Shown here: one piece after another, positions 5,944-62,699 of the stretch
Layout of the letters: each line of letters starts with the position of its first letter
How positions within the stretch are numbered: position 1 is the stretch's first letter
Assembly (NCBI RefSeq): GCF_901765095.1
Contig: NW_021963017.1
Coordinates: 174,253 to 238,252, forward strand
Length of the DNA: 64,000 nt
Direction: 5' to 3'
Source of the DNA: Microcaecilia unicolor
Lineage: Eukaryota
Made by a program: the position numbers and the translations under genes
Notes under the pieces: model-generated
What the model saw: the letters and a program-made list of their open reading frames with translations, nothing else
The model's database searches: none
What the model was told of the DNA's origin: nothing

Positions 5944-6130
5944 CTTCCATATCATCAAGCTGATCAATCCATAGACTGGTGGGTTGTGTCCATCTACCAG
6001 CAGGTGGAGATAGAGAGCAAACTTTTGCCTCCCTATATGTGGTCATGTGCTGCCGGAAACTCCCCAGTATGTTCTCTATCTCAGCAGGTGGTGGTCACAC
6101 ACAGCAGCAGCTCTGGCTAGGCCTCCAAGC
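5944..6130 (+). repeat. DIRS left inverted terminal repeat
   Basis: The reverse complement of 11655-11755 matches it over more than 100 bp. Its first 36 nt are complementary to part of the internal complementary region at 11042-11077. Confidence 0.6.
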
Positions 6131-6411
6131 CTAATCCTTAGGTTTTGTTGAGGCCTGGGGTTGAGGGCTCTTTTGAGCAAGTGCAAACCTGGTGGTGCCA
6201 GGTCCCTCCTTTTCTCCCCCCTCCCGCTGGCTCCGTTAAAAAAAAAAAAAAAATTTTAAACGTCCTTAAAGGCGTTTATTTCGACGTTTATTTAAACGTT
6301 CATTGCAGCTACTCACTGGGACACCAGTTCGTTACAGCTCGGAGCGGCAAGCAGGTAATTTTACCTTTTTATAGCGGGCAGGGGGTTCCCCGATTCTTCT
6401 CCTCGTGGCAT

Positions 6412-9978: not shown

Positions 9979-11018
9979 GGAAGAAGGGCTTCTCAGACAA
10001 GGTCATCGCCACTATGCTAAGAGCGAGGAAGCGCTCTACTTCTACTGCTTACGCCAGGGTTTGGCGTATCTTTGCAGCGTGGTGTGAAGCAGGCTCACTT
10101 TCTCCCTTCACTGCTCCAATTTCTTCAGTGTTGGCGTTCCTGCAAGAAGGTCTGGAGGAAGGCCTGTCGCTCAGTTCCCTTAAAGTCCAGGTAGCGGCTC
10201 TGGCTTGCTTCAGGGGCCGCCTGAAGGGTGCTTCCCTGGCTTCGCAGCCAGATGTGGTGCGCTTTCTCAAGGGAGTTAATCACCTGCGCCCTCCTCTGCA
10301 CTCAGTGGTGCCTGCGTGGAATCTCAACCTGGTGCTAAGAGCATTGCAGAAGCCACCTTTTGAACCCTTGTCAAGGGCATCTCTGAAAGACCTGACGTGG
10401 AAAGCAGTCTTTTTGGTGGCTATCACTTCAGCCAGAAGAGTTTCCGAGCTCCAGGCGCTCTCATGTCGAGAGCCTTTTCTGCAGTTCACTGAGGCAGGAG
10501 TGACTATTCGCACAGTGCCTTCCTTTCTGCCCAAGATTGTTTCTCGCTTCCATGTGAATCAGCAGCTCTGTCTCCCTTCCTTTCGTAGGGAGGACTACCC
10601 AGAGGAGTACTCTGCTCTTAAATATCTGGATGTGAGGCGAGTCATCATCAGATACTTGGAAGTGACCAATGATTTCCGGAAATCGGATCATCTGTTTGTC
10701 CTGTTTGCAGGTCCTCGTAAGGGTCTGCAGGCTGCTAAGCCTACAGTGGCAAGATGGGTCAAGGAAGCCATTGCAGCGGCTTATGTGGCCGCAAGGAAGG
10801 TGCCGCCTATCCAGCTGAAGGCTCACTCCACGAGAGCTCAGGCGGCCTCGATGGCAGAGGCCGGATCCGTCTCCTTGGAAGAGATATGCAAGGCGGCAAC
10901 TTGGGCTTCGGCTCATACATTCTCCAAGCATTACCGTTTGACGGTGGCTGCACGGGCAGAGGCCCGGTTTGGAGCTTCAGTGTTGAGGTCAGGGATTTCA
11001 ATGTCCCGCCCTGGGTGA
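9930..11018 (+). CDS. DIRS tyrosine recombinase (YR)
   Basis: The C-terminal catalytic region reads AHSTRAQAAS...ATWASAHTFSKHYRL, giving an R..H..R..Y arrangement. The frame differs from pol and overlaps its end. Upstream of ~9930, ORF 9126-11018 is an alternate-frame artefact of the RNase H region. Confidence 0.75.
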   Translation, partial: SLPLWSYGLAIERQRLRKKGFSDKVIATMLRARKRSTSTAYARVWRIFAAWCEAGSLSPFTAPISSVLAFLQEGLEEGLSLSSLKVQVAALACFRGRLKGASLASQPDVVRFLKGVNHLRPPLHSVVPAWNLNLVLRALQKPPFEPLSRASLKDLTWKAVFLVAITSARRVSELQALSCREPFLQFTEAGVTIRTVPSFLPKIVSRFHVNQQLCLPSFRREDYPEEYSALKYLDVRRVIIRYLEVTNDFRKSDHLFVLFAGPRKGLQAAKPTVARWVKEAIAAAYVAARKVPPIQLKAHSTRAQAASMAEAGSVSLEEICKAATWASAHTFSKHYRLTVAARAEARFGASVLRSGISMSRPG

Positions 11019-11035
11019 GTACTGCTTCGGTACAT

Positions 11036-11140
11036 CCCACCAGTCTATGGATTGATCAGCTTGATGATATGGAAGGTAAAATTATGTATAATCATACCTG
11101 ATAATTTTCTTTCCATTAATCATAGCTGATCAATCCATAG
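11036..11140 (+). repeat. DIRS internal complementary region (ICR)
   Basis: It joins the complement of the left-repeat start to the complement of the right-repeat end, meeting at a TA: ...cagcttgatgatatggaag|gtaaaattatgtataatcatacctgataattttctttccattaatcaTAgctgatcaatccatag. Confidence 0.65.
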
Positions 11141-11755: not shown

Positions 11756-11757
11756 TA

Positions 11758-11965
11758 CAGTGGGGGAAATAAGTATTTGATCCCTTGCTGATTTTGTAAG
11801 TGTGCCCACTGACAAAGACATGAGCAGCCCATAATTGAAGGGTAGGTTATTGGTAACAGTGAGAGATAGCACATCACAAATTAAATCCGGAAAATCACAT
11901 TGTGGAAAGTATATGAATTTATTTGCATTCTGCAGAGGGAAATAAGTATTTGATCCCTCTCGCAA
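11758..11965. repeat. Tc1 left IR/DR (the right IR/DR is at 13143-13350)
   Basis: The two ends are reverse complements. Over the ~165 bp I compared by eye (outer, inner and intervening segments) I saw no mismatch. Each holds two copies of the gggaaataagtatttgatccc transposase-binding-like direct repeat. Confidence 0.85.
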
Positions 11966-11972
11966 ACAAGAC

Positions 11973-13079
<1,107 letters not shown>

Positions 13080-13875
13080 TCATGCAGGTAACGAGTTGAT
13101 TTGGAGCATCTACCTGGTCTGTAGGGGCCAGATCTCTTACTGGTTGGTGGGGGATCAAATACTTATTTCCCTCTGCAGAATGCAAATAAATTCATATACT
13201 TTCCACAATGTGATTTTCCGGATTTAATTTGTGATGTGCTATCTCTCACTGTTACCAATAACCTACCCTTCAATTATGGGCTGCTCATGTCTTTGTCAGT
13301 GGGCACACTTACAAAATCAGCAAGGGATCAAATACTTATTTCCCCCACTGTATGATTAATGGAAAGAAAATTATCAGGTATGATTATACATAATTTTACC
13401 TTTATGGTTTATAATGGGCTGGGAAACCCAGATCCAATAAAAAAAAAAAAAGGTATCATCTTATTTTCTTTTTCATGTTTTATTTTGTTTGATTTCTATG
13501 GATAACCTTTAAGAGTGGACTAACACGGCTACCACACCTCTCTACCCAAGGCAATAGCAAACGTGATTTTTTTGCATTCTTTCCGTTAGGAGGGGATAGT
13601 GGGAATTGGAGAGTTTTCCAGAGGTCTGTGAAGGAGGTGAAGGGTTATATGAAAAATGTTTGACGTTGCTCAACAGCTTCATTATTTCCAATGCTGTATT
13701 GTAGATTTGTGCTGTGCTATATGCCTTTAGTTTTTTTTTATGTCAATAAAGATATTTCTTCACAAAAACACTAGCAAACTCCTCGTATGACTGCCTATTT
13801 GTAGCACATCTGTAAAAAGTCTAAAGCTGTTCCACTTGGCTAGGCGCTGTCTTAAAAAGCACAGGATAAATTATT

Positions 13876-15534: not shown

Positions 15535-16990
15535 GTTTCCTTGTCTATGCTCACCTCGCCCTCTGGTGGCCAGAACCGGTGGCTGCTATGGACTGTCACC
15601 CGTTCCAGACTTCAGCCGTGTCCGGTCCGGATCTTCCGGGCTGCCAGACTTGCTTCTCTTGTTTGTGCCTGAACAGCACCCGCAGCTGCTTTGTGATTCC
15701 TGCAGCTAAACTTCTGCAGCTGATGGGCTTTATTAATCACCTGGAAACTTCTGTGTTTGCCTTTACATTGTCTAAGGTCCCTGGTTTGTTTTGTGGCACT
15801 TCTGCCTAGTCTGGTTTCTTGTATAGTTCCTTGTCTGATTCTAGTTAGTCTGTGTGTACTTTAGCTTAGGTTTATTGCTTATTTCTTAGTCTTGTTTCTG
15901 GTTAGTATTCTTGGTCTAGTTTCTGTTTGTCTGTGTCTCTTGCTTAGTGGCTGCTCTGCGGCTTTCAGTCCTGTCTCTTGTCTGTCAGTATTTGTACCCT
16001 GTTTCAGTGGCTGCTTGGCAGCTTTCAGTTCCTGTCCTTTAGCTTGTTCCATTTCCTGCTTTGTGTAGTATTGTCTGTCTGTGAGTCCTAGCCCAGTTTC
16101 CTGCCTTGCTGTCCATGTATATTCCTTTCCCCTCTGACCCTCAGACTCTGTTCAGCCTAGTTGGTATCCAGTTCCTGCCCTGTCCGGTAAGTCCTGCCGG
16201 CCGCCTGCACCCAGGGGCTCAACTCCTGAGGAACGGCGGTCAAGTGCAGGTGAATTCTAGCTGTCCCTGTCAGAGTTCTGCCATGTCTCTGGTGTGGGGT
16301 GGTTTTGCTTGCCACTGCTGCTCCACGGCAGTGGCCCAAGGGCTCACGAACCTAGTTTCTGCTTTGGTGTTAGGTTTTCTAAGCAAGAAACTGGATTGTG
16401 AGCCCTTGGACCACTGCCGAGGAGCGGCAGTGGCAGGCAAAACCACCCCACACCAGAAGCAAGGCAGAACAGACGTACCAGCAAATCCAGGCTAGGTCTC
16501 TAGGCAGTCAGCCAGCAAACAGAAGACAGGTCCAGGCAAAGGTTCAAAAGGCAGGCGGCAAGCAAAGTCCAGGTCCAGGCAAAGGTTCAAAAGGCAGGTG
16601 GCAAGCAAAGCAAAGTCCAGGTCCAGGCAAAGGGTCAAAAGGCAGGCGGCAAGCAAAGTAAAGTCCAGGATCAGGCAAGGCTCAAAAGGCAGGAAACCAG
16701 CAAAAGCAGAATCGGGTCCAGACAAAGTCTCTCAGGCAGAAGTGCACAAGCACCCACGTACCAGGGCCTAAGGCAATGCAAAGGCAACCAGAAATGTTTC
16801 AAGATGGCTAATAAGCCCAGAAGCAGTTGAAACTCAGCTGCGGCAATCACCAGGCAGCTACGGGTGCTGTGCAGGCTCAAACAACACAAGCAAACCTGGC
16901 AGCCTGGAAGATCCGGATCGGACTAAGCTAAAATCTGGAACGAGTGATGGTCCATAGCAGCCACCCGCTCTGGCCACCAGAGGGCGAGGA
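15535..16990. mobile_element. Non-autonomous element with ~50-bp terminal inverted repeats and internal tandem repeats
   Basis: The terminal repeat ctcgccctctggtggccagaaccggtggctgctatggac at 15560-15600 reappears reverse-complemented at 16940-16985. Inside are ~60-bp tandem units at 15840-16100 and 42-bp units at 16500-16690. Related copies lie at 52525-53430, 39550-40340 and 54230-55200. Confidence 0.4.
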
Positions 16991-17149
16991 AAGCACAGAC
17001 GTAACATTTGGAAAACCTGACAGTTTCCTTTTTTTGTTATTTAATGTTGAGTAAAGCCATCTTTTTGGCATTGGTAAAATGCTCTCTATGTACTGTCGGT
17101 ATTAGAAGCTAGGGAGGGTTGATTTGGGAAGGATATATTGAAAATGTAT

Positions 17150-17512
17150 GTTTGTACCTGATAATTCTTTCCTTTAGTCACAGCAGATTAATCCAGAGAT
17201 TTATGGGCTATAACCATCTACCAGCAGGTGGAGATAGTTCAGTTCAGTGCTCCTTGCTCAGGCAGTATTTATCATAACTAAGCAGAAGGAAACAGAATTC
17301 TAACATTTCTCCTTTCCCACAGGGAAAAACGTGACAAAGCAGGAACTGCAAAACATGTAAACCAATGACAACAGTCCACCTAAAATGTAAAAATGCAACA
17401 ATACGTTCCAACAGAGAAGTAACTGATAGAAACTGCCGGAAAACAGGGTAGGGCCTCTAGATTAATTTGCTGTGAATAAAGGAAAGAAAAGTATCAGGTA
17501 AGACCAAGGAGG
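17150..17512. mobile_element. Short (~360 bp) non-autonomous element bounded by DIRS-type terminal repeats
   Basis: The left end is cctgataattctttcctttagtcacagcagattaatcca...ctaccagcaggtggagatag. The right end is ctagattaatttgctgtgaataaaggaaagaaaagtatcaggtaag, its reverse complement. There is no coding capacity. Confidence 0.45.
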
Positions 17513-20029: not shown

Positions 20030-20962
20030 GGTTCTTACCTTGATAATTTTCTTTCCTTTAGTCACAGCAGATTAATCCATTAACTGATGGATTGTATCTG
20101 CCTACCAGCAGGTGGAGATAGAGAACACTGAAAGCACATGGTGTTCTAGGACGCCCAAAGCAGAGTGAATAAAAAAGGCAATCAAACATATAAATGGCGA
20201 GTGACCGTACTCACTCGCAAATGCGCAGACTTCCCTCTCTGTCCCGCCCCTGCATCAATACGTGATGACGGGGGGGCGGGACAGAGAGGGAAACTGCGCG
20301 AAGGGGAGGGAACCGCCGAGGTCACCACCACTCCCCCTCCCCCCCCTGAGGTCGCTGCCACTGGTACACCCCCCCCCCCCCCGGAGTCGCTGCCGCCGCC
20401 GCCACCCCTCCACCCAGCCCATCTCTTCGCTATTCAACTTACATCTCCGGAGCAGGCAGATCAGCTGAGCTGCCATTGGCCTTCCTTCCCTGCCTGTGTC
20501 TCGCCCTCGCCGACGTTACGTCACACGAGGGTGGGACACAGGCAGAGAAGGAAGGCCGACGGGAGCTCAGCTGATCTGCCTGCTCCAGAGATGTAAGTTG
20601 AATAGCGAAGAGACGGGGTGGCGGCGGCGGCAACTCAGGGGGAGGGGCCAGCAGCGTCCTCAGGGGGAGGGAGCAGCAGCGACCCAATGGCCCGTTTCAA
20701 CGGGCTCTACGGCTAGTATAACATAAACTTTCCTCACAGAGAACAAACGCCCCAGAACCGGGGCAATAACCAAACAAAGGAGGGATGTTATCAACCTCCC
20801 GCAATAAAAACAGCATGTAGAAACTCTGATAGCTTGTTTTCAAGTACTCCTGATGAGGCACAGTGTCTGTATGCAACATCTGTACAAAAACTAAAGTCAG
20901 TCAGGGAGGGATCATGGATTAATCTGCTGTAACTAAAGGAAAGAAAATTATTCATTTATTTA
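20030..20962. mobile_element. Non-autonomous DIRS-ITR-bounded element of ~930 bp with internal palindromes
   Basis: The same termini as 17150-17512 occur at 20030-20130 and, reverse-complemented, at 20900-20960. Internal hairpins lie at 20230-20290 and 20440-20640. Confidence 0.45.
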
Positions 20963-23720: not shown

Positions 23721-24939
23721 GGACGCCTTGCAGGGAACTTCCGGTGGGTGACCATTGGGGGTGCTCAAGCACTCACAACACCCACGGAGTTGGCGCCTAT
23801 GACCATGTAGAAAGCGCTAGACATGTCAAATTGTAGGAGGAGTATGTTGTTGTCGGTTGCAATTGCTTGTTTGAAAATGTTCATTGCCGACCATAGTACC
23901 GTTTCGGTGCTGTGATTTGTCCGGAATCCTGACTGAGATTCGTGCAGAATTGAATGTTCGGTTAGGTAATCAGAGAGTTGTTTCGTCACTATGCCCTCCA
24001 TGAGTTTAGTTATGAGTGGGATAGATGCTACTGGGCGATAGTTAGTTAGGTCCGTTGTGCTTTTCTTCGCATCTTTTGGCAGTGGGGTAAGTAGGATGTT
24101 TCCTTTCTGCGTGGGAAAGAGGCCGTTTTGAAGCCTGTAGTTTATGTGCTTCGTAAGGTCTTTTTTTAATTGTTTGGGGGTTGATCTCATTAGGCTATTG
24201 GGCCAAACGTCTAATTTGCATTGTGAATTAGCGATTTTCCGAGCCATTTTGAGAATTAATCAGAAGATATCGTGTCAAACCTGGTCCATGATCGATCTGC
24301 TGGTCATTCCCCTAGTTTTGAGTCTAGGCATTCAAGGATGCTTGTGTACTCAGTTTTATTAGTAGGTATCATGAGTTGTAGCTTTGTGATTTTTTTCGTT
24401 GAAGTACTTTGCAAGATTGGTTGCAGATGGGATGTCTGTGTTGTTAGAGGTGACCGGTGTAGTGTTTAGGAGTTTATTTACGAGTGTGAAGAGTTTGTGT
24501 GTGTCCTTGTAATTTGGTCCTATTGTGGTTTTGAAGTATGTTCTTTTAGTTTGTCTGATAGTGTATTTGTATTTCCTTTGTAGTTTTTTCCAGTCTTTGA
24601 GTGTATGTACGTCTTTTTTCTTGATCCATGCTCGTTCTAATCTTCTGACTTGTGTTTTTAGTTCTTTCAGCTCTTCATTGAACCATGGTATAGAATTTAT
24701 TCTATGTGAGGTTCTGGTTTGTATTGGTGCTATGTTATCTAGTACTGTTTTGCATCTGTTGTCCCCAGGGGCGTATCTGGACTCCGGCGGTAGGGGGGGC
24801 CAGAGCCAGAGGGAGGGGGCACATTTTAGCCCCCCCCGCCGCCACCGACCCCCCCCCGCCATTGTCAGAGCCCCCACCGCCACCAATGACTCTCTCCACC
24901 CCCCTCCTGCCGCCAACCCTCCCCCGCTGCCGTTGCTTA

Positions 24940-25380
24940 CCTTTGCTGGCGGGGGGCCCCAACCCCCGCCAGCCGAGGTCCGCTTCCACCTGCCGCTGCC
25001 TTAAAAACTACTTCTTCAGCCGGTGGGGGACCCCAAACCCCCGCCAGCCGCCCCGAGGTGTTTAAAGTTCATCTTCGGCCTCCGTGGCCGTGCTGCTGTT
25101 GATAGGAGCTGTTGAATCCACTTCGGAGTCTGATGTCGCAGCACGTACAACGTACAACGACGTCAGACTCCGAAGTGGATTCAACAGCTCCTATCAACAG
25201 CAGCACGGCCACGGAGGCCGAAGATGAACTTTAAACACCTCGGGGCGGCTGGCGGGGGTTTGGGGTCCCCCGCCGGCTGAAGAAGTAGTTTTGAAGGCAG
25301 CGGCAGGTGGAAGCGGACCTCAGCTGGCGGGGGTTGGGGCCCCCCACCAGCAAAGGTAAGCAACGGCAGCGGGGGAGGGT
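24940..25380. repeat. Long GC-rich inverted repeat or palindrome with a central hairpin at 25080-25230
   Basis: ccccaaacccccgccagccgccccgaggtgtttaaagttcatcttcggcc...ggccgaagatgaactttaaacacctcggggcggctggcgggggtttgggg. The centre is a hairpin: ggagctgttgaatccacttcggagtctgatgtcgcagcacgtacaacgtacaacgacgtcagactccgaagtggattcaacagctcc. Confidence 0.7.
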
Positions 25381-25614
25381 TGATGGCGGTAGGGGGGTCC
25401 AGGGCAAAATCTGCGGGGACCCAGGCCCCTGAGGCCCCACGCAGATATGCCCCTGGTTGTCCCATTCTTGGAGAAATTGGGGGGAGTCTGTGGGAGTTTT
25501 CCATTCGTCTGTAAAGAATTGTTGCCAGAATGTTTGCGGGTCAATTTTACCTCTCGTACTATATGTTTTATTCACTTGTTTTTGTTGTGTCTTTTTTGTT
25601 TTCCAACGTAAGGA

Positions 25615-27060
25615 GAACCTAATTTTCCCTTCCTTGTAATCAACAGCAGATGAATCCATTAACTAATGGGATGTACCAAAGCACTCCCTAAGTAGGGTGG
25701 GAACAGGCAACTCCGCGAGCAAGCACTTGTGCTCCAAAATGCGCATCCTGCCGCGCTGCCACATCCAGCCTGTAATGCCACACGAAAGAGAGCTGAGAAG
25801 CTAGGTAGCCACACGACAGATATCCTGAAGAGGAAAAACACCCGTTTCAGCCCATGAAGAGGACATTGCCCTGGTAGAGTGTGCTTTAAACGCTTCAGGC
25901 GGCGACCGCCCTGAAAGCAGATAAGCCGAAAAAATTAGTTCCTTAAGCCATCGGGCTATAGTGGCCATAGAAGCCGGAAACCCCCGTTGGGGACCTGCCA
26001 ACAGAACAAATAAATTATCAGAATTCCTAAACTCATTTGACATCTGCAGATACTGCCACAGAGCCCTGCGGACATCCAAAAGGCGCAATTGCTCAAAGGA
26101 GTCCGGAAACGCCTCCTTAGAGAAGGAAGAAAGATGGGCTGGTTGAGGTGAAAAGCTGAAACCACCTTAGGCAGAAAAGAAGGCACCGTACGAACAGTTA
26201 CCCCAGATTCCGAGAACTGTAGAAAAGGATCCTGACAAGAAAGAGCCTGAAGCTCAGACATTCTTCTAGCCGACGTCATTGCCACTAAAAAAAACTGTCT
26301 TGAGAGTCACATCCTTCGCAGAAGCCCGTTTAAGAGGCTCAAACGGAGATCACTGGAGCACCTTCAACACGAGCCCCAGGTTCCAAGCTGGACAAGGCGA
26401 CCGCAAAGGACGACGGAGACGAAGCGCCCCTCTGAGAAAACGGAGAATATCCGGATGAGCAGCAAGGGACAATCTGGAGACTTTCCCCCAGAAGCAGGCC
26501 AACGCTGCCACTTGAACTCGAAGGGAATTGTAGGCCAGGCCCTTTTGTATCCCGTCCTGCAAAAAGTCCAGCAAGAGTGAGACTGTTGCCAGAGTCGGCA
26601 AGATAGACTTTGGCGTACACCACATTTCAAAAGTGCGCCAGATCCGAGCATAAGTCGTAGTCGTAGACCGCGTGCGAGCATGCAAGAGTGTGGCAATAAC
26701 CTTATTAGAATAGCCCTTGTCCCTCAATTGCACCCTCTCAAGAGCCAAGCCGGCCGTAAGACCAAAGCGGCAAGGATCTTCCATAGTCACCGGACCCTGA
26801 ACTAACAGGTTCGGAACCCGAGGCAAAGGAAGAGGCGCGTCCACCAGCATCCGCCCGAGATCCGCGTACCACGGATGCCTTGGCCAATCCAGAGCGATGA
26901 GAATCACCAATCTTCGGTGCAGATGAATCCGAAGTAGTACTCGCTCTATCAAGGGCCAAGGAGGGAACACATACAGGAGGCCCGAGGGCCAAGGTTGAGC
27001 CACAGCATCCAACCCCGCCAAGCGAGGATCACCAGGACCCAAAGCACTCCAAAACAAGTA
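25615..27060 (-). mobile_element. Second DIRS-like copy, 3' portion only
   Basis: The DIRS-type terminus ggagaacctaattttcccttccttgtaatcaacagcagatgaatccat is at 25615-25665. Minus-strand ORFs 25801-26285 read AHSTRAMSS...ICRVAT, a tyrosine recombinase. ORF 26350-27057 reads ...DWPRHPWYADLGRMLVDAPLPLP..., homologous to the pol end at 9800-9950. Confidence 0.7.
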
Positions 27061-33794: not shown

Positions 33795-34960
33795 CTGGAT
33801 TGGTCTGATAGGATGCTAAGGAACGAAAAATAGTGTCTTGCCTAATAACTTTCTTTCCTTTAGTCCTATCACACCAGTCCAGAATCCCTCCCTGGTTAAC
33901 TTTGTTTTGGTTACAAACTATTTTTCAGATATCAAACTCATTGAACTCAAACTTGTTTGGGAAAAATGTGGGATATAAATGTAACAAAGAAACTATCAAA
34001 CACATCACTCCAATATAGTGTCACAGTGGGGATTCAGATCTGAAAGATAAAATATATTAAATTTTTAAAAATAGCCTTAGTGTAACAGGGAGTCTGACTT
34101 CTATGCTCCACTGTAAATATTACCATCACAGGCTTCCACCACCTTCCGAAAAAAAAAAAAAAAACCACAGAGAAAAACTCCCAGAATATTTAAAAAAAGT
34201 GTAAAGAAGTGGGAGAAAAGTCTGTGTTTAAAAACAGAAGGGAGGGTAACACAATTTAACACAATACAGATCCAAATGCCCACAACACTAAATCTCACTA
34301 TGAATATGAATCACCCAAATAGACACTAATTAACAATCCCTCACTAGACTAAAATCTTAATTCAAAAAGAGAAGCCTTCCTGCAAGTAAAGAGAAAATAG
34401 AGCAAAGACTCTTATAACATTCCTAGAATTGCTTAAACTTACATCCACACTAATGAATGGATTCTAATTCTAACAAAAAGTAAACTTTACTTAGCTCAGA
34501 ACATCCAAATTGTCCTGACAAAGGTACAGTCTCATAAGATTTTCACAGTCTGTGGGGTTTCTCCAAAATTAAAGTGTCCAATTTATATTATCCTTCTGGC
34601 AAAAATGTCCAATTTCCTTGTTTTTCGACAGTAGGAAATCCTTCTGTTTCGCTATCTTCATCAGGAGAAATACATAGCAGTGCATAAAAACTGCTTTACA
34701 AGTTGGATAACCTATGGAACTTTGTAAGTCTAAGTGCTTTGAAAATGAGCCCCTTAGTCTCAAGTTTCAATATTGACTATAAGGTGGATTTTGAGCACCA
34801 TTGCTTTGCTGTTCAAAATAGTGAAATTCTGTGCTGCATGATACACTTAAGGGGCAAATCACTTGAACTATTTTCTTTTTCTGTCTTTGTACGCTGGTAG
34901 ATAACCCCATTTGTCTGGACTGGTCTGATAAGACTAAAGGGAAGAACATTATCAGGTAAG
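33795..34960. mobile_element. Element or elements bounded by a variant DIRS-type terminus
   Basis: The hairpin-paired termini at 33795-33885 read gtctggattggtctgatagga...tcctatcacaccagtccagaa. The matching terminus at 34895-34960 reads gtctggactggtctgataagactaaagggaagaacattatcaggtaag. Confidence 0.35.
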
Positions 34961-35489
34961 ACATAACTTTTCCGTACATGTGCATGGGACAGCAGTTTTC
35001 AAAGGCCATGTATCTGATGAAATGTCAATTTAACCAGATAAAAGGGCTGTCTGACAACTGCCAACCATAAAGGTGGCCAGAGGTATGTGTGATGTTCCTC
35101 AACACACATATTTTTGGCCTAATTTGAAGACTGCAGTCCCAGCAGAGGAAAATAATGTACGCGGATTCCATGTAGAAAGCATCACAAAAAAATCAAGTAC
35201 ATACATCCATGACTACTTTGTACCCATGGCAATACACGAGTACATTGATTGTACCCATTGCAGTTTTAAAAGTGAAAGTATACAACTACTTTCAGTCGGA
35301 AAATTGTGCAGAGACTGGGTAAAAGTTTGAGAATTGGCTGCTTTCTGATGCTAAAAGTTTCTTGAGTCTGAGACCTGGAAAGATGAGAGACTGAATGAGT
35401 TTTTTTGGGTAGGATTAAAAATACAAAGGAAAAGGCTCTTAACAGAAAGTGAACTTCCTTATTCCTCTAGCCTAAATTTCTGCATTCAT

Positions 35490-38269: not shown

Positions 38270-38401
38270 ATGGCTGTGGGAATCTTTGCAAACTGTGTGT
38301 TCTTTCTGAAAGTGACCCGTTTATCTGTTCTGGACAAGAAAAAGATTAAAAGTCACATACAAGAAAATGGGGGAGTCATTTCTTTTGTGCTAAATAAAAA
38401 G
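38270..38401 (+). CDS. PARP4: PARP4 (vault poly(ADP-ribose) polymerase) first coding exon, holding the start codon
   Basis: The acceptor ttttgacag|G precedes the ATG. The peptide MAVGIFANCVFFLKVTRLSVLDKKKIKSHIQENGGVISFVLNKK aligns with the human PARP4 N-terminus MVMGIFANCIFCLKVKYLPQQQKKKLQTDIKENGGKFSFSLNPQ, quoted from memory. The donor is AAG|gtattg. Confidence 0.8.
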
Positions 38402-40340: not shown

Positions 40341-41825
40341 GGACTCACAAGGGCGACATTTGCTGACAGAAAAGTTTATCCAATGTGGCAAAAGAATGTC
40401 CCCGGACACCAGAAGGGACAAGGGATACACAGTAAAGCCGTAGCTGAAAGAAAGCTAAGAAGTCAGAATGAGAAAGCTGCCATTGTGCTTGTGCAAACGA
40501 AGGGAAGACAGCCCCCTCTGGATCTGTAAAATGTCCAACATAGTGACAGCTCCCCTTCGCCTATGCCCTAAAACAGGTTGCACCCTGCTCCTCCAGGAAG
40601 TGAGGGTTGTCAACCGTTGCTAGAAAAGGGGAGGAACCAGATGCTTCCCTGGAACGGAGTCTCCAACACATCCACACCCGACGAAGTGGGTGGAGCAGAG
40701 GGTGCAGCCCCCCACCCCATCATGGGCACCTGTAAAAGGTTAAAAGCCGAATAAGGATAAGAGCAGTCCGCTCATACATAACGTGGTGCATAGTTGTAAA
40801 CGCCAGTATAAAGCTCATGTATCCACCTGATCAGCGCTGTAACATTGTAAAGACGTAAATCTGGTAGATGAGGGCCTCCCCCCGTGACTGGGAGTGAATG
40901 AATTTAGTGTAGCTAATCTGTGCCCTACATCTGGCCCAGAGAAATGATCCTACAGTCCCTTTATATAATGCTTCCTCCTTTATAGCAATCAAGGAGGGGC
41001 AACATCTGCAAAGGGTACAGTATTTTGGGGGGCATGACCATTTTTTCCAGCACCACTCTGCCCAATAATTGCTTATATGTGCTTTTATAGAATAGGCTCA
41101 CAGACCGTGTTCTTTATGCGCCCATCTTGTAGCTAGGACTGGCACGCCCGTAGCCAACTTTTTGCACTGGCACCGATGCCCCCTTCACTCCACTACAGCC
41201 TGTAATCCAGTATCTCCCTTTGTCGCTCAAGCCCTGCCCCCCTCCCCCACTGGACCAGGTGAGGCACTGGCTCAAGATGCTGGTGATAAAGGGCACCAGA
41301 ATCCCAATTAGACATCTATCCCTCTAAGAGTTTGAAGGTAGGCTGGACTGGGATTTTGACGGCCTTGATCTTCAGTGCCCTGAGCCAGTGCCTCAACTGA
41401 TCCATAGGTTGAGCTGGCCCTGCTTGTAGCACCCAGTTGTAGAATTGTCCCCTTTAATGTATGACATCTGATACAGGTGGGAAGCCTAAACATAGCTAAT
41501 GTTGAGTCCTTCCAAAGCAAGACATTTTTTTTTCTGTGTGGAATAAAGTTGTTGGTTTTTGTTTTTTTTTTTAATCTGGCAACTTTGCTCCTTTTTGATC
41601 GTCTGCTATTTGACTATGAAGGCTTTTCCTCTTCTTTTTTTTTGTGATTAATACTACAATTGAATTCCTTCAAAAAGGCAGTAAATAAATCCTAATTAAT
41701 AAATAATAAATTGCAGTGTGCTGTGTCTCAGAAAATGTTCATGATCTCTGTCCCTAAGTACAGTTATCGCCAGCAGTTAAACATTTAGAGAAGTATAATG
41801 ATTGCAGTTATTTTATATTTTCCAG

Positions 41826-42021
41826 TGCTCTCACATCATTGTGGATAATATTGATGCATTAAGTTCTTATCAGCTGAAAACCATTCAGAAGTATCAAATC
41901 CCCGTTTTACTCAGTGACTTCATCCAGAATTGTGTTGAAGAAAGGCGGCTCCTACAAGCTGATGATTACGTTGCTAAAAAATCAGTTCAGATAGATCCAA
42001 AGAAAGGGACAGAAAGTCAAG
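41826..42021 (+). CDS. PARP4: PARP4 coding exon 2 (BRCT domain)
   Basis: The acceptor is tttatattttccag| and the donor CAAG|gtaaag. CSHIIVDNIDALSSYQLKTIQKYQIPVLLSDFIQNCVEERRLLQADDYVAKK aligns with human CTHIILDNADVLSQYQLNSIQKNHVHIANPDFIWKSIREKRLLDVKNYDPYK. Confidence 0.8.
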
Positions 42022-49041: not shown

Positions 49042-51700
49042 ATGGCAGACTTTAAGGTTTTCATTTATAATCTAAAGGGTCTGAATTCTCCATACAAAAG
49101 GCATTCTTTACTGCGTGAGTTATGTTTGATGCCTCCACATGTGGTTTTCCTGCAGGAAACTGATTTTTTAAAGAAACATGAGGGTTTATTATCTTCTTCG
49201 CAGTACCCGACTGTGTATTATGCTTCTGATGCAAAGGGAGCTAAGAAAAGAGGGGTGGCTATTATGTTTCATAAGGATGTGCAGGTACAACTTGTGCATT
49301 TAAAGAGAGACACTGAGGGTCGCTATCTTTTTCTGCACGTTATGTTGGGGCAGGAGGAGTACACTTTGGCTAGTGTTTACGCCCCAAATGAGCGGCAAGA
49401 GAGTTTTTTTGTGCGCCTCCAGAAGGAGTTGCAGAATTTTGCTTGGGATAAAGTGCTGGTGGCAGGAGATTTTAATGCTACTATGCAGCCCGGGACGGAC
49501 AGATCTGCTCCTCCTGCTTCGACTGACTATAGAATTTCTAAGGCTTTGAGGAATTTTGTAGATGCTATGGGTCTTTATGATGTGTGGAGACTGGGACACC
49601 CTAGAGGGTGGGACTATACCTTTTATTTTCCTGTGCATCTCTCTTATTCCAGATTAGACTGTTTGGTTTTTTTTTTTTTCATAAAACCTTGTCAGAGGAG
49701 GGGGGGTGACTCTTACATAGGTCATATTACTATCTCAGACCATGCTTCGGTCAGGGCAGTTATTCCTTCTTTGAAGATGGACATTCAATAACTGTTTGTT
49801 ACAGGACCCGGATATTGTTGCTAATTTTCTTCCTGTCTTAAAAGACTATTTTGCTATTAATATGGAGTCGGGACCGACATTGGGTACAGTGTGGGATGCC
49901 TTTAAGACAGTATCGAGAGGTTATTTTATTAAGTGTGGTAGTCCGCGGTTCAGGGTTCATAAAGTGCTTTGGAGGACAGGTACAGGGCCTCAGGCTCTGT
50001 GTCTGACTTTCGGAAGCTTCAAGCGGTACGATTGAAGCTGGCTGCGTTGCATGATGAGAGTTTGCAATTTGTGCATGCACGTTTAAAACAAGTTCATTAC
50101 GAATGTACTAATAAACCTGGGTGGTTGTTGGCTACAAAATTAAGAAAGATGAGAGCAGGTAGGCATATTTTGAGAGTGCGGGATGAAAATGGAGCTATGG
50201 TACATACTTCGGCTCGGATTCGGGAACGTTTTGCCCAATTTTATGAGACTCTGTATGCTGCTGTACAGACTGAGGAAATTGACAATTATTTGGCTGCTCG
50301 GGGTTTGTCGGTTTTATCTGAATTACAGAGAAGGGAACTGGAAGCTCCGGTGACGGTGGACAAGGTGATGCAGGTTATTAAGACATTGCTGACGGGTAAG
50401 GTGCCGGGTTTGGATGGATTTACGAATGAATTTTTTTAAAGACCTTTGTGGGGGAGTTGGCACCCTATTTGATGTTGGTCATTAACTCTGTTAGGGATGG
50501 TGTGTCTTTTCCCAAGTCTATGATGGAGGCCTGGTTGGAGGTAATTCCAAAACCAGACAAAGATAAAACTGAATGTGCATCATATCGCCCTATTTCTATA
50601 CTCAATACTGTTGTTAAAATATTGGCTAAGGTGCTTGCGAATCGTTTGGGCAATGTGCTTCCTAATTTAATCCATCTAGATCAGGTCGGTTTTGGAGCAA
50701 AGTAGCAGGCAATGGATAATATTCGTAAAACTTTGGACTTACTTTATGCATCTCAGTTGAAAGCCTGGCCTGTGGGGTTATTAGGACAGGATGCTGAAAA
50801 GGCCTTTGACAGGGTACATTGGGGATATTTGGATAAGGTTTTACATCGATTTGGGTTGGGACCGTTTTATAGGTCCTGGATTCAGGCGTTCTATTCTTCG
50901 CCGCAGGCTTGTGTGAGAGTAAATGGGGAGAATTTGGGGGCTTTCTTTTTGGGGCGTGGTACCAGACAGGGGTGTCCGTTGTCTCCTCTTCTATTTGCTC
51001 TGGCGATGGAGCCTTTAGCGGCAGCTATTCAAGAAAATGTAGACATCACCGGGGTAAGGGTGGGAGAACAGGAACATAAAATCACATTATTTGTGGGCGA
51101 TGTTCTCCTGTCCTTGACTAAACCGTTAGTTTCTCTTCCTAACTTAATGAAGGAGATGGCGGCGTACTCACAGATATTTGGATACAAGTTGAATGCGAGT
51201 AAGTCCACTGGGATGGCTGTGGGGGTATCACCTAGGCTGATGGAGGCGTTGAAGACTTCCTTTGCTTTTAAATGGTCTGTCAGAGATCTTCGCTGTTTGG
51301 GGGTTCAGATTCCTGGGAACCTGTCAGAGTTGTTTGCTGTTAATTATCCGGCTGTTCAGAAGGCGATGCAAAGAGATTTGGATAGATGGATGTCCATGGG
51401 TCTCACCTGGTTTGGGTGGATTGCTGCGATTAAAATGAATATTTTACCTCGCTTATTGTATTTATTTCAGGTACTTCCCTTTCGTTTGTCTAGGTCATTC
51501 AAGACAGTTTGATTCGTTTTATTTGGTATCATAATAGACCGCGTGCTTTTTTATATAAGAGTAAGCATGCTGGGGGATTAGGGGTACCTAACTTGTTCTG
51601 GTATTATTGTGCTGCGCAGTCTAGATCGGCTCTTGAGTGGTTTCAGAGGGAGGATCATAAATTGTGGGTACATATTGAGCAATCTTTGGTTTCTCCATGC
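49042..51700 (+). pseudogene. L1 ORF2 (APE endonuclease, reverse transcriptase, post-RT domain), split into six ORFs by frameshifts
   Basis: The endonuclease reads MADFKVFIYNLKGLNSPYKRHSLLRELC...VVFLQETDF...LVAGDFNAT. The RT reads ...YRPISILNTVVKILAKVLANRL...QVGFGAK / FDRVHWGYL...RQGCPLSPLLFALAMEPLA...FVGDVLL. The post-RT domain reads IRFIWYHNRPRAFLYKSKHAGGLGVPNLFWYYCAAQ. Confidence 0.75.
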
Positions 51701-52290
51701 AGGAGAAAGAGACGTCAGAATCTCAACCTTTGTCTGTATTGTGGTGATACTGGACATTATGCGGCCAGGTGCCCTCTTAAACCGGCACCCCTGGATCAGG
51801 GTTTGACAGCAGGCACTATAGTAAGTCTATCTTCTGACATTCTTCGTACTCAATTCTAGGTGCCAGCTGTGCTCGATCTTGGTCACAGAAAGGAACAGAC
51901 TGAAGTTTTCCTGGACTCTGGGGCTGGTGGAAACTTTATAACCGAGGCCCTGGTTCATCAGTTAAACATTCCTATACAAGAACTACCTAAGACCATGCGG
52001 CTTTTTTCAGTTTATGGACGCATTCAAGGTTATGTAAACACCCAGACGGGTCCGGTGAGCTTATGTATTGGGGATCACAGAGAAGACATTTCCTTTTACG
52101 TCCTCCAGTCAGCCGTGCAACCCATTGTGTTGGGTCTACCGTGGATACAGAGCCACAATCCGATCTTAGACTGGGAAAAGGGTGAGATTTTGGACTGGGG
52201 TGAGTCCTGCAGGAAGGATTGCCTCGTGTCGGATCATGGTGAGATTGACAGCGAACGGCAAGACCAAGAATCAGATGCCTGGACTGACAT
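51700..52290 (+). mobile_element. Gypsy/Ty3-like LTR-retrotransposon fragment: Gag zinc knuckle and aspartic protease
   Basis: CLYCGDTGHYAARCP is a CCHC knuckle. FLDSGAGGNFITEALVHQLNIP...QPIVLGLPWIQSHNPILDW is a retropepsin-type DSG protease. Its frame runs straight on from the L1 post-RT sequence. Confidence 0.6.
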
Positions 52291-52490
52291 GAAGTGGAAG
52301 AGTGGCCTAGTGGTTAGGGTGGTGGACTTTGGTCCTGGGGAACTGAGGAACTGAGTTCGATTCCCGGCATAGGCAGCTCCTTGTGACTCTGGGCAAGTCA
52401 CTTAACCCTCCATTGCCTGCCGCATAGAGCCTGCCATGAGTGGGAAAGCGCGGGGTACAAATGTAATAAAAATAAAATAAATAAACATTA
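52290..52490 (+). mobile_element. tRNA-derived SINE
   Basis: agtggcctagtggttagggtggtggactttggtcctgg...gagttcgattcccggcataggcagctccttgtgactctgggcaagtcacttaaccc...gggtacaaatgtaataaaaataaaataaataaa. A fragment of the same family lies on the minus strand at 55740-55860. Confidence 0.5.
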
Positions 52491-57672: not shown

Positions 57673-59029
57673 GTAAGAGTTGGATCAGCTGAATTATTTT
57701 GCAGTTGCAGTTCTCTATCTTGTAAATCAATTAAAGTATTTTACTGACCTTTGCCTGATTTAAGTTTGTTAGTGCTACTGCTAGGGTCAAAGCCATCAGC
57801 ACATGCAAATCCCGTGAGAGGTAAAGGACAAGCAGAGTGAGAGGAGGAGTAGTGATATACTAGAGCTTTGTGCAGTGATGACCTTGAACAGTAAGGCCCT
57901 CTATTAACTTATTAGGCAGCAGGACCAGTAAAGCGGCTGAGGTGGCAAGAGCTGTTCACTGTTGAAGGTCCCCAGTTCAGTTGCTTAACTGAGCCTTCCA
58001 TTACCCAGATTGGCTGAGAGGGTGTTGAGGCGGCAGTGTTCAGTTTCCATGGCCATTGCTTATGAGCAGCACCAAGTTACCAGATTTAGGGCCTATGGTT
58101 TCAGAGTCTTAGTCTTTTTTTTTGTTTGTTTAGCTCATAGAATAATGCCCCTGTTTATGAAATGTCATTAGGTTTCAATAGAGGCACTAGCCATTTTAAG
58201 TTGTGTACAGAGATTTTTTACCATCTTAGGTGGGCAAGTTCCTCAGTATTGTAGTTGTGCCAGAAACAAGTAGAAGTTGTTCATTTTGACATCAGCAGAC
58301 ACTTTACTTTCCCAGTCCAAAAATGGTAAGGTATAAAATGGTATTGAAGTCAACTTTTGCTTATCAAACCACTAATACATGGAATACTTCAACGGAAGAT
58401 ATTAGAGCTATGACTAATTATAAGTTCTTTTAGAAATCTTGAAAAACGTTTTTATTCTGCAAATATGTGTCTTTGAAATCTTAAAATGGGTTATTGGTTA
58501 TTTAATAATGTTGTAATACATAGGTTTATCTAGTTATCATCTCTGGAAACCTGCATTGAATTGTTAGATATGTCATTTACAAGTACTGTAATGTAAGAGT
58601 TCAAGAACGAGCCCTGGTGCATGGCCCTTGGCTGAGCATTTGCATTGTAGTGACCTGATCAGCTATACAGGGTGGGGTGGGATTGGGGCTGAGTGGGGGG
58701 GAAGGGGGGTTAAGAAGGTGAAAAGGAAGGTTAATTGCTAGGGAGTAGGTAATAAAGGCTTATGGCACCAGATTCTAGCCCTCATTTCAGTTGAGCTGGA
58801 AGTATTAAGGAATAAAAAGAAAAATGTTAATATCATAAGTGAGTTTTTTGTTCAAATGCTTTTCTTCTACCATTTTTTATCTTGCTTGCTATAGTGGAAT
58901 GCTTCTGCTGGGTGCACCAAGAGATAGAGATGTTAGCATGCCTGCCAGTCAGGCAATTTGATTAATGAAATGGCCACTGCTGACTGGTGCTGTCTTATTT
59001 AGTACCATTACATGTAGGCTTATAGGACC

Positions 59030-60740
59030 TTAAAAATATGATGGGAGGGAATAGGGTTACCATATGGCCAGTTTTACCCGGTCATGTCCTCTTTGTGAGG
59101 ACATGGCCAGGCATCTGGGCAGGTTTTGCCAGCCTGCCCATTTGTCTGGACTTGCTGACGAACGGGTAGGGTGGTGGGCTTCAGGGTGTCCTCCCCTCCC
59201 CTCCTTTACTTTATTGTAGTGTTCTGGTGGTCTAGTGACCTCTACGGGGCAGTAAAAAGCCCATCTTTCCTGCCTGGCGTGGCTGTAGACGGCCTTACTT
59301 CTGGCGCTGCTTCAAAATGCCTGCTGAGAGTTCAAGTGATGGCCTCATGAGACTTTCACAGAAGTCTTGCAAGGTCACTGCTTGAACTGTCGGCAGCCAT
59401 TTTGAATTGGCGCCAGGCGCAAGACAGTGTAGCCATGCCAGGCCCCATCTTTCCTGGCCCAAAGAGGCCACCAGGGCACTACAATAAGGTACAGGAGGGG
59501 TAGTGAACGAATGGAGTCGTGGGTGGGGGGAGACAGGAAAATTGGGGAGAGGATGTACATGGGGGGGGAGAGAGAGGGAATCTGGCTTTCTTTCAGGCAG
59601 ATGATCAAAAGCAAACGCCGGCATGCCGGCGTTTGCTACCGCCCCATAATCAGAGCCCTCGAGCGAGTGAAACAACGCGCTCGAGGGCTCTTTGCGCAAG
59701 TAGCATGCAAATGCATGTTAAACAGGGCTTAGCGCATTCATCGCCGATGATCAGCGGTCAGCGTGCCAAAATTTGGGTTGCTGGCCGTGGCAAACCCTAC
59801 GGCAGTTCCGAGCTGGCGTTAGGGTTTACAGATCATTGGGGAGGAATGGTGAGCCCTGTGTCCAGCATGCAGTTGCATGCTAGCAGGCCCCCGTTGCCCC
59901 CAAAGCAAACCTGCCAACAGGGGGCAGGAGGTCTGGCGGACCTCTGTTCCCCCTCCCCCCCCCGACGATCCCACCCCCCCAGGTTCAGGGAGGGCTGGCA
60001 GTCCGGTGGATCTCCAGCCCCCCCAAACCCCCAGAAAATGGTCCCTGGTGGCCGCTGGCTAACCCCCCCCCCCCCAGCAAGCGACAGGGGTGGGCTGGAG
60101 GTCCGGCGGACCTCCAGCCCACCCCAGCTCGCCCTCCCCCAGCGTTTTCAAGAATCCCTGGTGGTCCAGCATAAAAAAGAACCCCCTCCCAGCGAGCGAC
60201 CGGGGGGGGGGGCTGGAGATCCGGCGGACCTCCAGCCCACCCCAACTCCCCCCCCCCCACAACGTCTGAAGAATCCCTGGTGGTCCAGTGTAAAAAAGAA
60301 CCCCCTCCTGCCCCCCCCTACCTTAGTTGGAGGAGGGAGGTAGGTAGCCTGCCTCCTTCCTCTTCCATGGGATGACGCTGCCGCCGCAAAATGGTTGATG
60401 ACGTTGCTCGGGACAGGGGTAGTCATGGCCTGGTGGTCCCATGGACCTCCAGCCCCTGTGTTTGACAGGTTTGGGCTTTTGACAGCCCAGATCTGTCAAA
60501 CAAGTGCGGGAGGATTGTGCTGAGCGCATGCTCGGCACAATTTGCCCGCACTTCTACCCCATGATCAGAGATAATTGCGCTGTTTAAATTTGCATGCATT
60601 ATCTATGATCATAGGTCTAATAGGGCTCCACACTGTTCCAGCGCTATTTTAGAGCGCTGTTGGAACAGCGCAGGGCTTTTGATCATCTGCCTGTTTGGGA
60701 GGGTGGAGGTGTGACAGGGGCCAGGGCATGTTTCCTCTTT
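59030..60740. repeat. GC- and CpG-rich segment dense in palindromes, with ~120-bp tandem units at 60060-60305
   Basis: There is an imperfect ~300-bp palindrome at 59200-59500. Perfect hairpins include gcaaacgccggcatgccggcgtttgc and gagccctcgagcgagtgaaacaacgcgctcgagggctc at 59620-59700. Further hairpins sit at 60480-60560 and 60600-60680. The tandem units read gctggaggtccggcggacctccagcccacccc. Confidence 0.55.
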
Positions 60741-60909
60741 TTCCTTAGGGCAAATACGATAACCCTAGTAGGGAATCCTTTATTTCTGAAAGAAAGAGTG
60801 GCTCACTGAGTGGAGCAGAGCTGGTGAGCATCCATTAAAACTTGGTAGCATATCACTGAGGGTGTGAGGTCTATGTAGAAATGTATTAAACTGGAAAACG
60901 TTTTTTCAG

Positions 60910-61020
60910 ATTCTAACAGATTTAAAAGAAATGGCAGTTGTTGAGCTGCAGCAACTATCGGAAAATTATGCATTTCCATTTCGCATTTCAGCAAACTTTG
61001 GTTTATCAAATGGATCTCAG
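60910..61020 (+). CDS. PARP4: PARP4 coding exon 5
   Basis: The acceptor is ttttttcag| and the donor CAG|gtaattt. ILTDLKEMAVVELQQLSENYAFPFRISANFGLSNGSQ aligns with human VGMEGGQEAVVVELQCSRDSRDCPFLISSHFLLDDGMETRRQ. Confidence 0.75.
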
Positions 61021-61534: not shown

Positions 61535-61562
61535 GGGGGGGGGGGGGGGGGGGGGGGGGAGG
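61535..61562. repeat. poly(G) homopolymer of ~28 G, flanked by ~45-bp direct repeats at 61310-61355 and 61590-61630
   Basis: gggggggggggggggggggggggggg. The flanking repeats read cccaatttgggctcgggtccacccaaaattagacatctcc and cccacgtttggctcaggctcacccaaaatcagctatctgg. Confidence 0.9.
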
Positions 61563-62154
61563 GCAGAGGGGTGGGGAGATAATTGTGTGCCCACGTTTGG
61601 CTCAGGCTCACCCAAAATCAGCTATCTGGCGACGCCACTGATGTGTTCGATGCATTTTTAGAAGGTTTCCCAATATAGTTAAAGTAATTGGTAACACTGT
61701 GACAGTGTATTTCACTGAGGCAGCAAGTCAGCACAAAAGCATGAAAATATTTTCTGAATATAAATTTGTAGCACTGTCACCATCTATAGTAGATTGGTTT
61801 TAATGACACAGTAGAGAAAACATAACTCTTAGTAACAGACTTCAAAATATTTTAAATGGAAAACACATAATATTCTCTCTTTCTCTGTGAGTTTATGCTG
61901 ATTTGTCTAATCATGAGCTGACCTTGAGGCTTATTTTCAAAGCACTTAGCCTCCCAAAGTTCCATAGAAACCTATGGAACTTAGCCTCCCAAAGTGCTTT
62001 GAAAATATGCCTCCTTATATAGTAATGGAATCTGTAGAAAGCAAGTTCAGTGATATAAGTGTTTCTTTTATCACCAAACTGTGAAAGAGAAGAGAGTGTG
62101 AGGCATCATTAGTCCAGCCTGTTCATTAAAACATGGTGGTTTTGTGATTAACAG

Positions 62155-62304
62155 AAAGAAACACAGTTTCTACAGGTGAAAACTTCGAAAGAGGCTTGCG
62201 AAAGTTATGATGTCTATCTTGAAGATCTCAAGAAGAAAGATTTCACATTAAAAGAAGATGTCCCCCAAGAAGCAATCCGGTTTGCTTCTGAGATGCTGCA
62301 GGAG
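62155..62304 (+). CDS. PARP4: PARP4 coding exon 6
   Basis: The acceptor is tgattaacag| and the donor GAG|gtttct. KETQFLQVKTSKEACESYDVYLEDLKKKDFTLKEDVPQEAIRFASEMLQE aligns with human FAIKKTSEDASEYFENYIEELKKQGFLLREHFTPEATQLASEQLQA. Confidence 0.8.
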
Positions 62305-62699
62305 GTTTCTACTGGTTTTGATTTCATATGCTTTCAGTTTTACTTCTTTAGAGCAGTACTATGCTTTCTCTAGCTTTACAAGTTATTACAGTATATGAGA
62401 GATTTTTAGCAGTCAGTGGAAGCAGGAAAAGACAACGGGGGCTTAAGTGACTTGGTAGTAATGCGGAGCAGGAGAGAGAGTGTTGGATTGCCCAGATTTT
62501 ATGAGCAGTGTTCTGAAAGGAGAGACATGAGTAGCACTTATGATCTTTTTTTGAACGTAAAGTTATTCAGCTCCTATTAGGCCTGATGCCAAAACACAGT
62601 AACTGTTGAGAATGTAAATATGAGAAAAAGTAAAACAAAAAACAATTTCTTTGAATAAATCCCTTGACCAAAACTAATACAGTACTGTGTTCTGGCTTA

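Follow-up and report, generated by a model that had tools for sequence, protein, structure and literature searches.

What occupies positions 59030–60740 (1711 bp) of the 64,000-nt stretch of Microcaecilia unicolor DNA analysed here, hereafter the window? An earlier note on this block, which lies in an intron of PARP4, offered three options: a foldback-type element, a cluster of Helitron termini, or a structured regulatory or insulator-like region. The general notion of repeat-derived non-coding DNA is supported; that of one single entity is not. The block is probably a pile-up of nested non-autonomous class II (DNA) transposon relics that accumulated in the PARP4 intron by successive insertions. 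It is not one entity, not a CpG island and not a new kind of element. The structures in the block are real and highly non-random, and the block is ordinary for this locus because the window contains 32 other inverted-repeat structures. The element limits drawn here are 59052–60767.

The ends of the elements were located by pairing left ends in 58900–59699 with right ends in 60300–60899 (800 × 600, 480,000 pairs), with terminal inverted repeats (TIRs) and an adjacent direct repeat required. Exactly two solutions were obtained, 59052/60767 and 59594/60693, and only the first has an 8-bp target site duplication (TSD). The TIRs of this outer pair (59052–59065, TAGGGTTACCATAT; 60754–60767, reverse complement TAGGGTTATCGTAT) start with TAGGG and are identical at 12 of 14 positions. 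The left copy of the TSD (59044–59051, GGAGGGAA) matches the right copy (60768–60775, GTAGGGAA) at seven of eight positions. One of 300 composition-preserving shuffles produced a match of this kind. When this geometry was moved to 113 other places in the window, three matches were obtained, two of which are genuine transposon inverted repeats.

A TAGGG start and an 8-bp duplication are hallmarks of hAT elements, whose TIRs begin with the consensus YARNG (Ac, hobo, Hermes, Tol2). The outer TIRs show this start. Because of its TAGGG-type inverted ends and 8-bp TSD, we assign 59052–60767 as a hAT-like, non-autonomous element. Once the inserts are removed, the backbone (59052–59197, 59501–59593 and 60694–60767) is 313 bp long, a typical size for a hAT-type miniature element. 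[quoted passage not shown] A subterminal hairpin (59077–59111, 15-nt arms, 87%) is located just inside the left end, and 59052–59135 folds with z = −3.3. The outer element thus shares the 8-bp TSD, the TAGGG TIRs, the backbone of about 310 bp and the lack of an ORF with non-autonomous hAT miniature elements; it differs from them in a TIR of only 12/14 and in carrying later inserts.

The second solution, 59594–60693, defines an inner non-coding element of 1.1 kb. Its TIRs (59594–59612 and 60675–60693, CAGGCAGATGATCAAAAGC) are perfect over 19 nt. The 19-mer has no other site in the window, where 0.02 matches would be expected by chance even with three mismatches. TTT is found on either side of the element; the flanks, CTTTCTTT and TTTGGGAG, have nothing beyond it in common. 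The left arm (59594–59900) contains three hairpins, the right arm (60456–60693) contains four, and a tandem array lies between them. The first hairpin of the left arm (59610–59637) is a perfect 14 + 14 structure with no loop and a GCATGC apex, and it overlaps the inner end of the left TIR. The second (59652–59691) has 17-nt arms (94%; 14 perfect); its loop measures 6 nt if the 17-nt arms are taken, or 12 nt if only the 14 perfect pairs are counted. The third is an imperfect palindrome of about 180 bp (59701–59882). The hairpins of the right arm (60459–60668) follow one another at 60459–60502, 60502–60553, 60561–60612 and 60633–60668. Both arms carry one module in direct orientation, in which CCCCATRATCAGAG follows a hairpin with a GCATGC apex.

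The density of palindromes that first drew attention to the block was confirmed. Across the whole window, only seven perfect hairpins (arm at least 10, loop at most 12) were detected, and the three longest (59610–59637, 59652–59691 and 60087–60125) are all within the block, in addition to the imperfect ones. The hairpins and the 300-bp palindrome described below were also recovered by a repeat finder and by self-BLAST. Fold energies were calculated for single-stranded DNA and compared with dinucleotide shuffles; each folded part is far more stable than its shuffles, with z = −12.0 for the left arm of the inner element (59594–59900), −9.6 for its right arm (60456–60693), −6.2 for the tandem-array part (59901–60455) and −10.2 for the 300-bp palindrome (59190–59510). 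Two short motifs are concentrated here. ATGATCA has six occurrences in the block against two in the remaining 62 kb, and ten of the 12 window occurrences of CTGGWGGYC are in the block, where the 300-bp palindrome and the tandem units have it in common. Repeated short subterminal motifs are the usual binding sites of transposases, and by analogy motifs of the ATGATCA/CTGGWGGYC type in the inner element are putative transposase-binding sites.

The central array (59917–60322) comprises about four units of 70, 100, 118 and 118 bp. Tandem Repeats Finder (TRF) reports a 119-bp unit in 1.9 copies over the clean units (60087–60308, 87% matches), with two further degenerate units upstream; the earlier estimate of 2.5 copies of a 120-bp unit was about right. 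Each unit opens with a 30-nt palindromic core, GGGCTGGAGGTCCGGCGGACCTCCAGCCC, which occurs five times (at 59921, 59991, 60091, 60209 and 60426). The fifth copy (60426–60455, 83%) is isolated from the array. A perfect hairpin with 19-nt arms (60087–60125) and an imperfect one (60205–60243) are located within the array. Central tandem arrays are carried by many miniature elements; in this one, the array probably grew by slippage at the palindrome on each unit boundary.

To which superfamily could the inner element belong? A hAT element was rejected for the absence of an 8-bp TSD, TTT alone being common to the flanks. PIF/Harbinger elements have a 3-bp TWA duplication and CACTA elements have CACTA termini; here, the possible 3-bp duplication is TTT and the termini read CAGGC, and both superfamilies were rejected. 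A canonical Helitron (HLE1) does not fit either: the inner element opens with CA, closes with CCTG and is flanked by T at either end; 5′-TC, 3′-CTRR and an A/T insertion site are all missing. It resembles HLE1 termini in being non-coding repeat DNA with short GC-rich hairpins; the inverted repeats at its ends set it apart from them.

Helentron-type elements have an insertion site between two Ts and short inverted ends, and central tandem arrays are frequent among them (PMC4067079, PMC7492417, PMC11417382). The inner element could accordingly be read as a non-autonomous Helentron/HLE2-type rolling-circle element (HINE), which would have moved as single-stranded DNA through a hairpin-recognising Rep/helicase and inserted between two Ts without a TSD. 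Several features would suit such an element: the T residues at both ends (equally readable as a 3-bp duplication), the short TIRs, local hairpins in each arm instead of arm-to-arm complementarity, the hairpin-CCCCATRATCAGAG module in direct orientation in both arms, and a central array that accounts for roughly half of its length, which is also seen in HINEs (PMC4067079, PMC7492417). In canonical HLE2 elements, however, a stem-loop follows the right repeat, with 38–60 nt from this repeat to the 3′ end (PMC4067079, PMC11417382). The 60 nt outside either repeat of the inner element are unfolded in either orientation (minimum free energies of −2.2 and 0 kcal/mol, z = +1.9 and +1.0), and the Helentron layout was rejected in the absence of this stem-loop. 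HLE2 inverted repeats measure about 11–18 nt and are terminal or subterminal (PMC11417382, PMC4067079); the inner repeats, at 19 nt, are outside this range and are apparently fully terminal. No Rep/helicase is encoded in the window. We regard a Helentron/HLE2 origin as unlikely, and the suggestion of a Helitron terminus cluster is not supported, as both the canonical ends and the HLE2 stem-loop are missing.

The closest published analogues in architecture are the tandem-repeat miniature elements of bivalves and insects, namely, DTC84 of Donax trunculus, the oyster pearl elements and Cg_HINE/DINE-1 (PMC3879986, PMC7492417, PMC4067079). In these elements, a palindrome is located near the junction of each core repeat (PMC3879986), and they match the inner element in an arrangement where two flanks enclose a central tandem array whose units each contain a palindrome (PMC3879986, PMC7492417). 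Shared features are flanking modules with short inverted repeats, a central array of about 100–120-bp units, the palindrome near the unit boundary, T (or A) at the termini and the lack of coding sequence. Current classification places DTC84, the pearl elements and Cg_HINE/DINE-1 among the derivatives of Helentrons; their repeats are subterminal, and a 3′ stem-loop lies beyond the right one. The inner element differs in its terminal 19-nt repeats, the lack of a fold outside them, its vertebrate host and the lack of a microsatellite module. The likeness is one of layout.

The third component is an imperfect palindrome of about 300 bp (59198–59500), correctly recognised in the earlier note. It is a foldback or MITE-like insert in the left part of the outer element, and its outer arms (59198–59233 and 59465–59500) are 86% complementary. 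A 172-bp palindromic core (59272–59443, ends GCCTGGCRTGGCT) at its centre is bracketed by a perfect 13-bp direct repeat, CCCATCTTTCCTG (59260–59272 and 59444–59456), the two together spanning 59260–59456. When the core and one copy of the repeat are removed, the remaining arms still pair, down to a small loop. The core is therefore read as a nested insertion at the apex, and the 300-bp palindrome would be a composite of a small palindromic element and a second palindromic insertion. As in the foldback and palindromic miniature elements of vertebrates (long-hairpin elements of fish and frogs), nearly all of the sequence consists of two complementary arms that form one long hairpin (z = −10). 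Unlike them, it has no definable TSD at its outer ends, and the core has its own 12–13-bp flanking direct repeat. The term foldback-type element is thus apt for this one component; the block as a whole resolves into nested TIR elements.

CpG content separates the layers. The block contains 62 CpGs in 1711 bp as compared to 14 and 20 in the 2-kb flanks, and its GC content is 57.6% as compared to 39%. Observed/expected CpG over the whole block is 0.44, with a window mean of 0.45; the CpG density that had been thought unusual is high locally but average as a ratio. By part, the ratio is 0.18–0.26 in the intron flanks, 0.29 in the backbone, 0.32 in the 300-bp palindrome and 0.75 in the arms of the inner element. 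This gradient, low in the flanks and backbone and high in the inner arms, fits an old host element with a young insert. Together with the perfect ends and perfect hairpins, the ratio of 0.75 leads us to read the inner element as the youngest layer. The earlier impression of CpG richness arose because the inner arms are CpG-rich; most of the surplus CpGs belong to the youngest element, where they are still undecayed, and not to a host CpG island.

The same data bear on whether the block is a host regulatory element, such as an intronic CpG island, an enhancer or a CTCF insulator. The local GC and CpG density against the 39% GC flanks would agree with this, as would the stretch 59466–59920, the only part of the block to pass loose CpG-island criteria (GC > 50%, observed/expected CpG > 0.6, at least 200 bp), and a CTCF-like site with one mismatch (59914–59927), the sole one in the block. 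About 29 other window segments, mostly in transposons, pass the same criteria, and the ratio for the whole block is at the window average; a CpG island over the whole block was rejected. The arms of the youngest element and the CpG-rich part have exactly the same extent. CTCF-like matches in the window are no commoner than in shuffles (three as compared to 0.87 expected; five of 100 shuffles reach three), and a CTCF cluster was rejected, the single weak site in the block not being above chance. The other two CTCF-like sites in the window, at 15556 and 16974, are in the arms of a long-TIR element (15543–17000). A regulatory or insulator-like region, the third of the options, is very unlikely.

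The CpG partition also bears on another arrangement, in which the whole block, 1.7 kb long, would have transposed together as a single composite, non-autonomous hAT element, with the inner repeats and palindromes as part of its family consensus. Only the outer pair of ends has a classical TSD, and the presence of CTGGWGGYC in the tandem units as well as in the 300-bp palindrome gives a hint of a shared origin. Against this, the outer ends are degenerate (TIR 12/14, TSD 7/8), in contrast to the perfect inner ends (19/19), and CpG decay is sharply unequal, with a ratio of 0.29 in the backbone and 0.75 in the inner arms. The perfect 13-bp direct repeat around the 172-bp core likewise argues for separate events. 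We consider a single transposed unit decidedly unlikely.

No recognisable coding capacity had been seen in the block, and the searches agree. The ORFs 59519–60343 (plus strand) and 59295–59699 (minus strand) have no Pfam match, and a protein-coding block was rejected on this result. The 274-aa product of 59519–60343 has no homologue in the protein database searched, from which vertebrate proteins are effectively beyond reach, since a 187-aa concatenate of PARP4 exons also matched nothing there.

The hairpins could instead be structured RNAs processed from the PARP4 pre-mRNA, as an intronic microRNA (miRNA) or a hairpin-RNA cluster. Several stems are 19–24 bp or longer, and a relaxed Rfam search gave sub-threshold matches to miRNA precursors, the best supported being mir-7131 at 59314–59405, in the 172-bp core (37 bits, E ≈ 3e-6), with some primary-sequence similarity. 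No match in the block reaches its gathering score, and a known RNA family was rejected on this ground. The best scores are at most half of the gathering score (37 against 74 bits, 50%, for mir-7131; 45.7 against 100 bits, 46%, for MIR7724). The matches are on both strands and to many unrelated families, as any palindrome would give. Moreover, the perfect short hairpins (28–40 nt in total, loops of 0–1 nt) are not substrates of Drosha or Dicer. Structured RNAs are an extremely unlikely explanation. A palindromic repeat family related to the core may have yielded a miRNA in another species; a literature search on mir-7131 found nothing.

An assembly artefact or foreign bacterial, plasmid or phage DNA is hardly conceivable. 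Several hairpins followed by T-runs do resemble bacterial terminators, and the GC content is above that of the flanks. Against this, the junctions with host sequence are clean, with TIRs and a TSD, and the repeat copies differ by point changes and are not exact duplicates. Neither 72,556 plasmids nor 50,697 phages yielded a blastn match to the whole block, and none of 185,579 bacterial and archaeal genomes contains the 26-nt core (59611–59636) of the perfect 28-nt hairpin. The TIR 19-mer of the inner element gave no match in viral contigs, 21 single matches in metagenomes, none extending beyond 25 nt, and 18 single matches in bacterial genomes, in unrelated bacteria and with a longest high-scoring segment pair of 29 nt. 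These isolated matches to metagenomes and bacteria are due to chance.

Our data suggest how the nested relics could have accumulated. A hAT-type miniature element of about 310 bp would have inserted first, duplicating the 8-bp target GKAGGGAA. A palindromic foldback-like miniature element would then have landed inside it, at 59198–59500. The 172-bp palindromic element would have followed at the apex of 59198–59500, leaving the 12–13-bp direct repeat. Most recently, the 1.1-kb element with the perfect 19-nt TIRs would have entered the T-run at 59591–59593; before this insertion, the backbone would read ...GGCTTTCTTTGGGAGGG... at this point. The hairpins of the block would then be the terminal and subterminal inverted repeats of these elements together with the repeated short motifs (ATGATCA, CTGGWGGYC and GCATGC at the apices), and a transposase supplied in trans would bind to the short motifs. 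On this account, the block would have no host function.

Some observations weigh against nested DNA-transposon relics. The outer element has a short TIR (12/14) and a TSD with one mismatch. The 12–13-bp direct repeat at the 172-bp core exceeds the duplications usually made by DDE transposases. The inner element has no TSD recognisable beyond TTT and fits none of the superfamilies tested; its arms have no mutual complementarity beyond the 19 nt, each having its own hairpins, which is unusual for a simple miniature element. Finally, self-BLAST found no second copy of any component in the window, so that repetitiveness, which defines a transposon family, lends no support.

The peculiarities of the inner element might have another explanation. 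It may be a young member of an undescribed vertebrate family whose ends are recognised by a series of local hairpins and the flanking motif (CCCCATRATCAGAG, ATGATCA) rather than by complementarity of the arms. This would point to HUH-type, hairpin-guided single-strand transposition, or to an otherwise unclassified mechanism, with insertion into T-runs without a classical TSD. We regard such a family as distinctly improbable.

The placement of the block in a PARP4 intron, claimed from the sequence at the outset, was verified with a human PARP4 probe, which was used solely for locating exons. The 5′ part of the gene is on the plus strand of the window, with tblastn exons at 38270–38401, 41823–41999, approximately 60910–61020 and 62164–62307 (43–55% identity to human) and hence on both sides of the block. 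The next coding exon downstream, 60910–61020 (plus strand), has 37 codons in phase 0, and its acceptor is 142 nt from the end of the block. For human PARP4 residues ~103–165, tblastn found no matching exon in the 19 kb between 41999 and 60910; either a poorly conserved exon was undetected there or this species lacks the segment. In the following intron, a short way downstream of the block, are a 29-nt poly-G run (61535–61563) and a palindrome with 42-nt arms (61926–62013). The distance from human PARP4 and the transposon content together suggest a non-mammalian vertebrate.

Other mobile elements are abundant in the window, and its 32 other inverted-repeat structures include the Tc1 copy and the 500-bp palindrome described next. 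A Tc1/mariner copy (11756–13352) has perfect 202-nt TIRs and an intact ORF on the minus strand (11973–13025) for a 350-aa Sleeping-Beauty-like transposase with the Pfam domains HTH_SB, HTH_Tnp_Tc3_2 and DDE_3. It appears very young and is possibly still active. Exact-protein look-ups of this transposase and of the block ORF matched no record. The long-TIR element at 15543–17000 has 188-nt arms (82%) and a nested palindrome with 90-nt arms (16275–16470). A 500-bp palindrome (24898–25398), in a GC- and CpG-rich stretch, has 249-nt arms that are 95% complementary and separated by 3 nt; a perfect hairpin with 11-nt arms (24945–24973) is located inside it. Inverted ends of the type TTCTTTCCTTTAGTCACAGCAGATTAATCC are common to three elements (17165–17488, 20043–20951 and 33825–34972), which appear to form a multi-copy miniature-element family within the window. 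A DIRS-like retroelement (6000–11100) has long open frames, with RVT_1, RNase H and a 630-aa ORF without a Pfam match, and a second fragment (26350–27057) encodes a similar C-terminal protein. These two DIRS-like regions are the most CpG-rich parts of the window. ORFs for a LINE-type endonuclease and reverse transcriptase, followed by one for an aspartyl protease, are located at 49042–52354.

For annotation, the block is to be masked as nested DNA-transposon relics and not recorded as a CpG island, gene or regulatory module. A dense group of hairpins lies 142 nt upstream of a PARP4 splice acceptor and could influence replication, sequencing or splicing. The sole mildly unusual item is the inner 1.1-kb element, apparently young, with hairpin-rich arms, and outside the superfamilies tested; its curation would be worthwhile if the genome contains many copies. 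Its perfect ends and undecayed CpGs, together with the perfect 202-nt ends of the Tc1 copy, suggest recent DNA-transposon activity in this genome.

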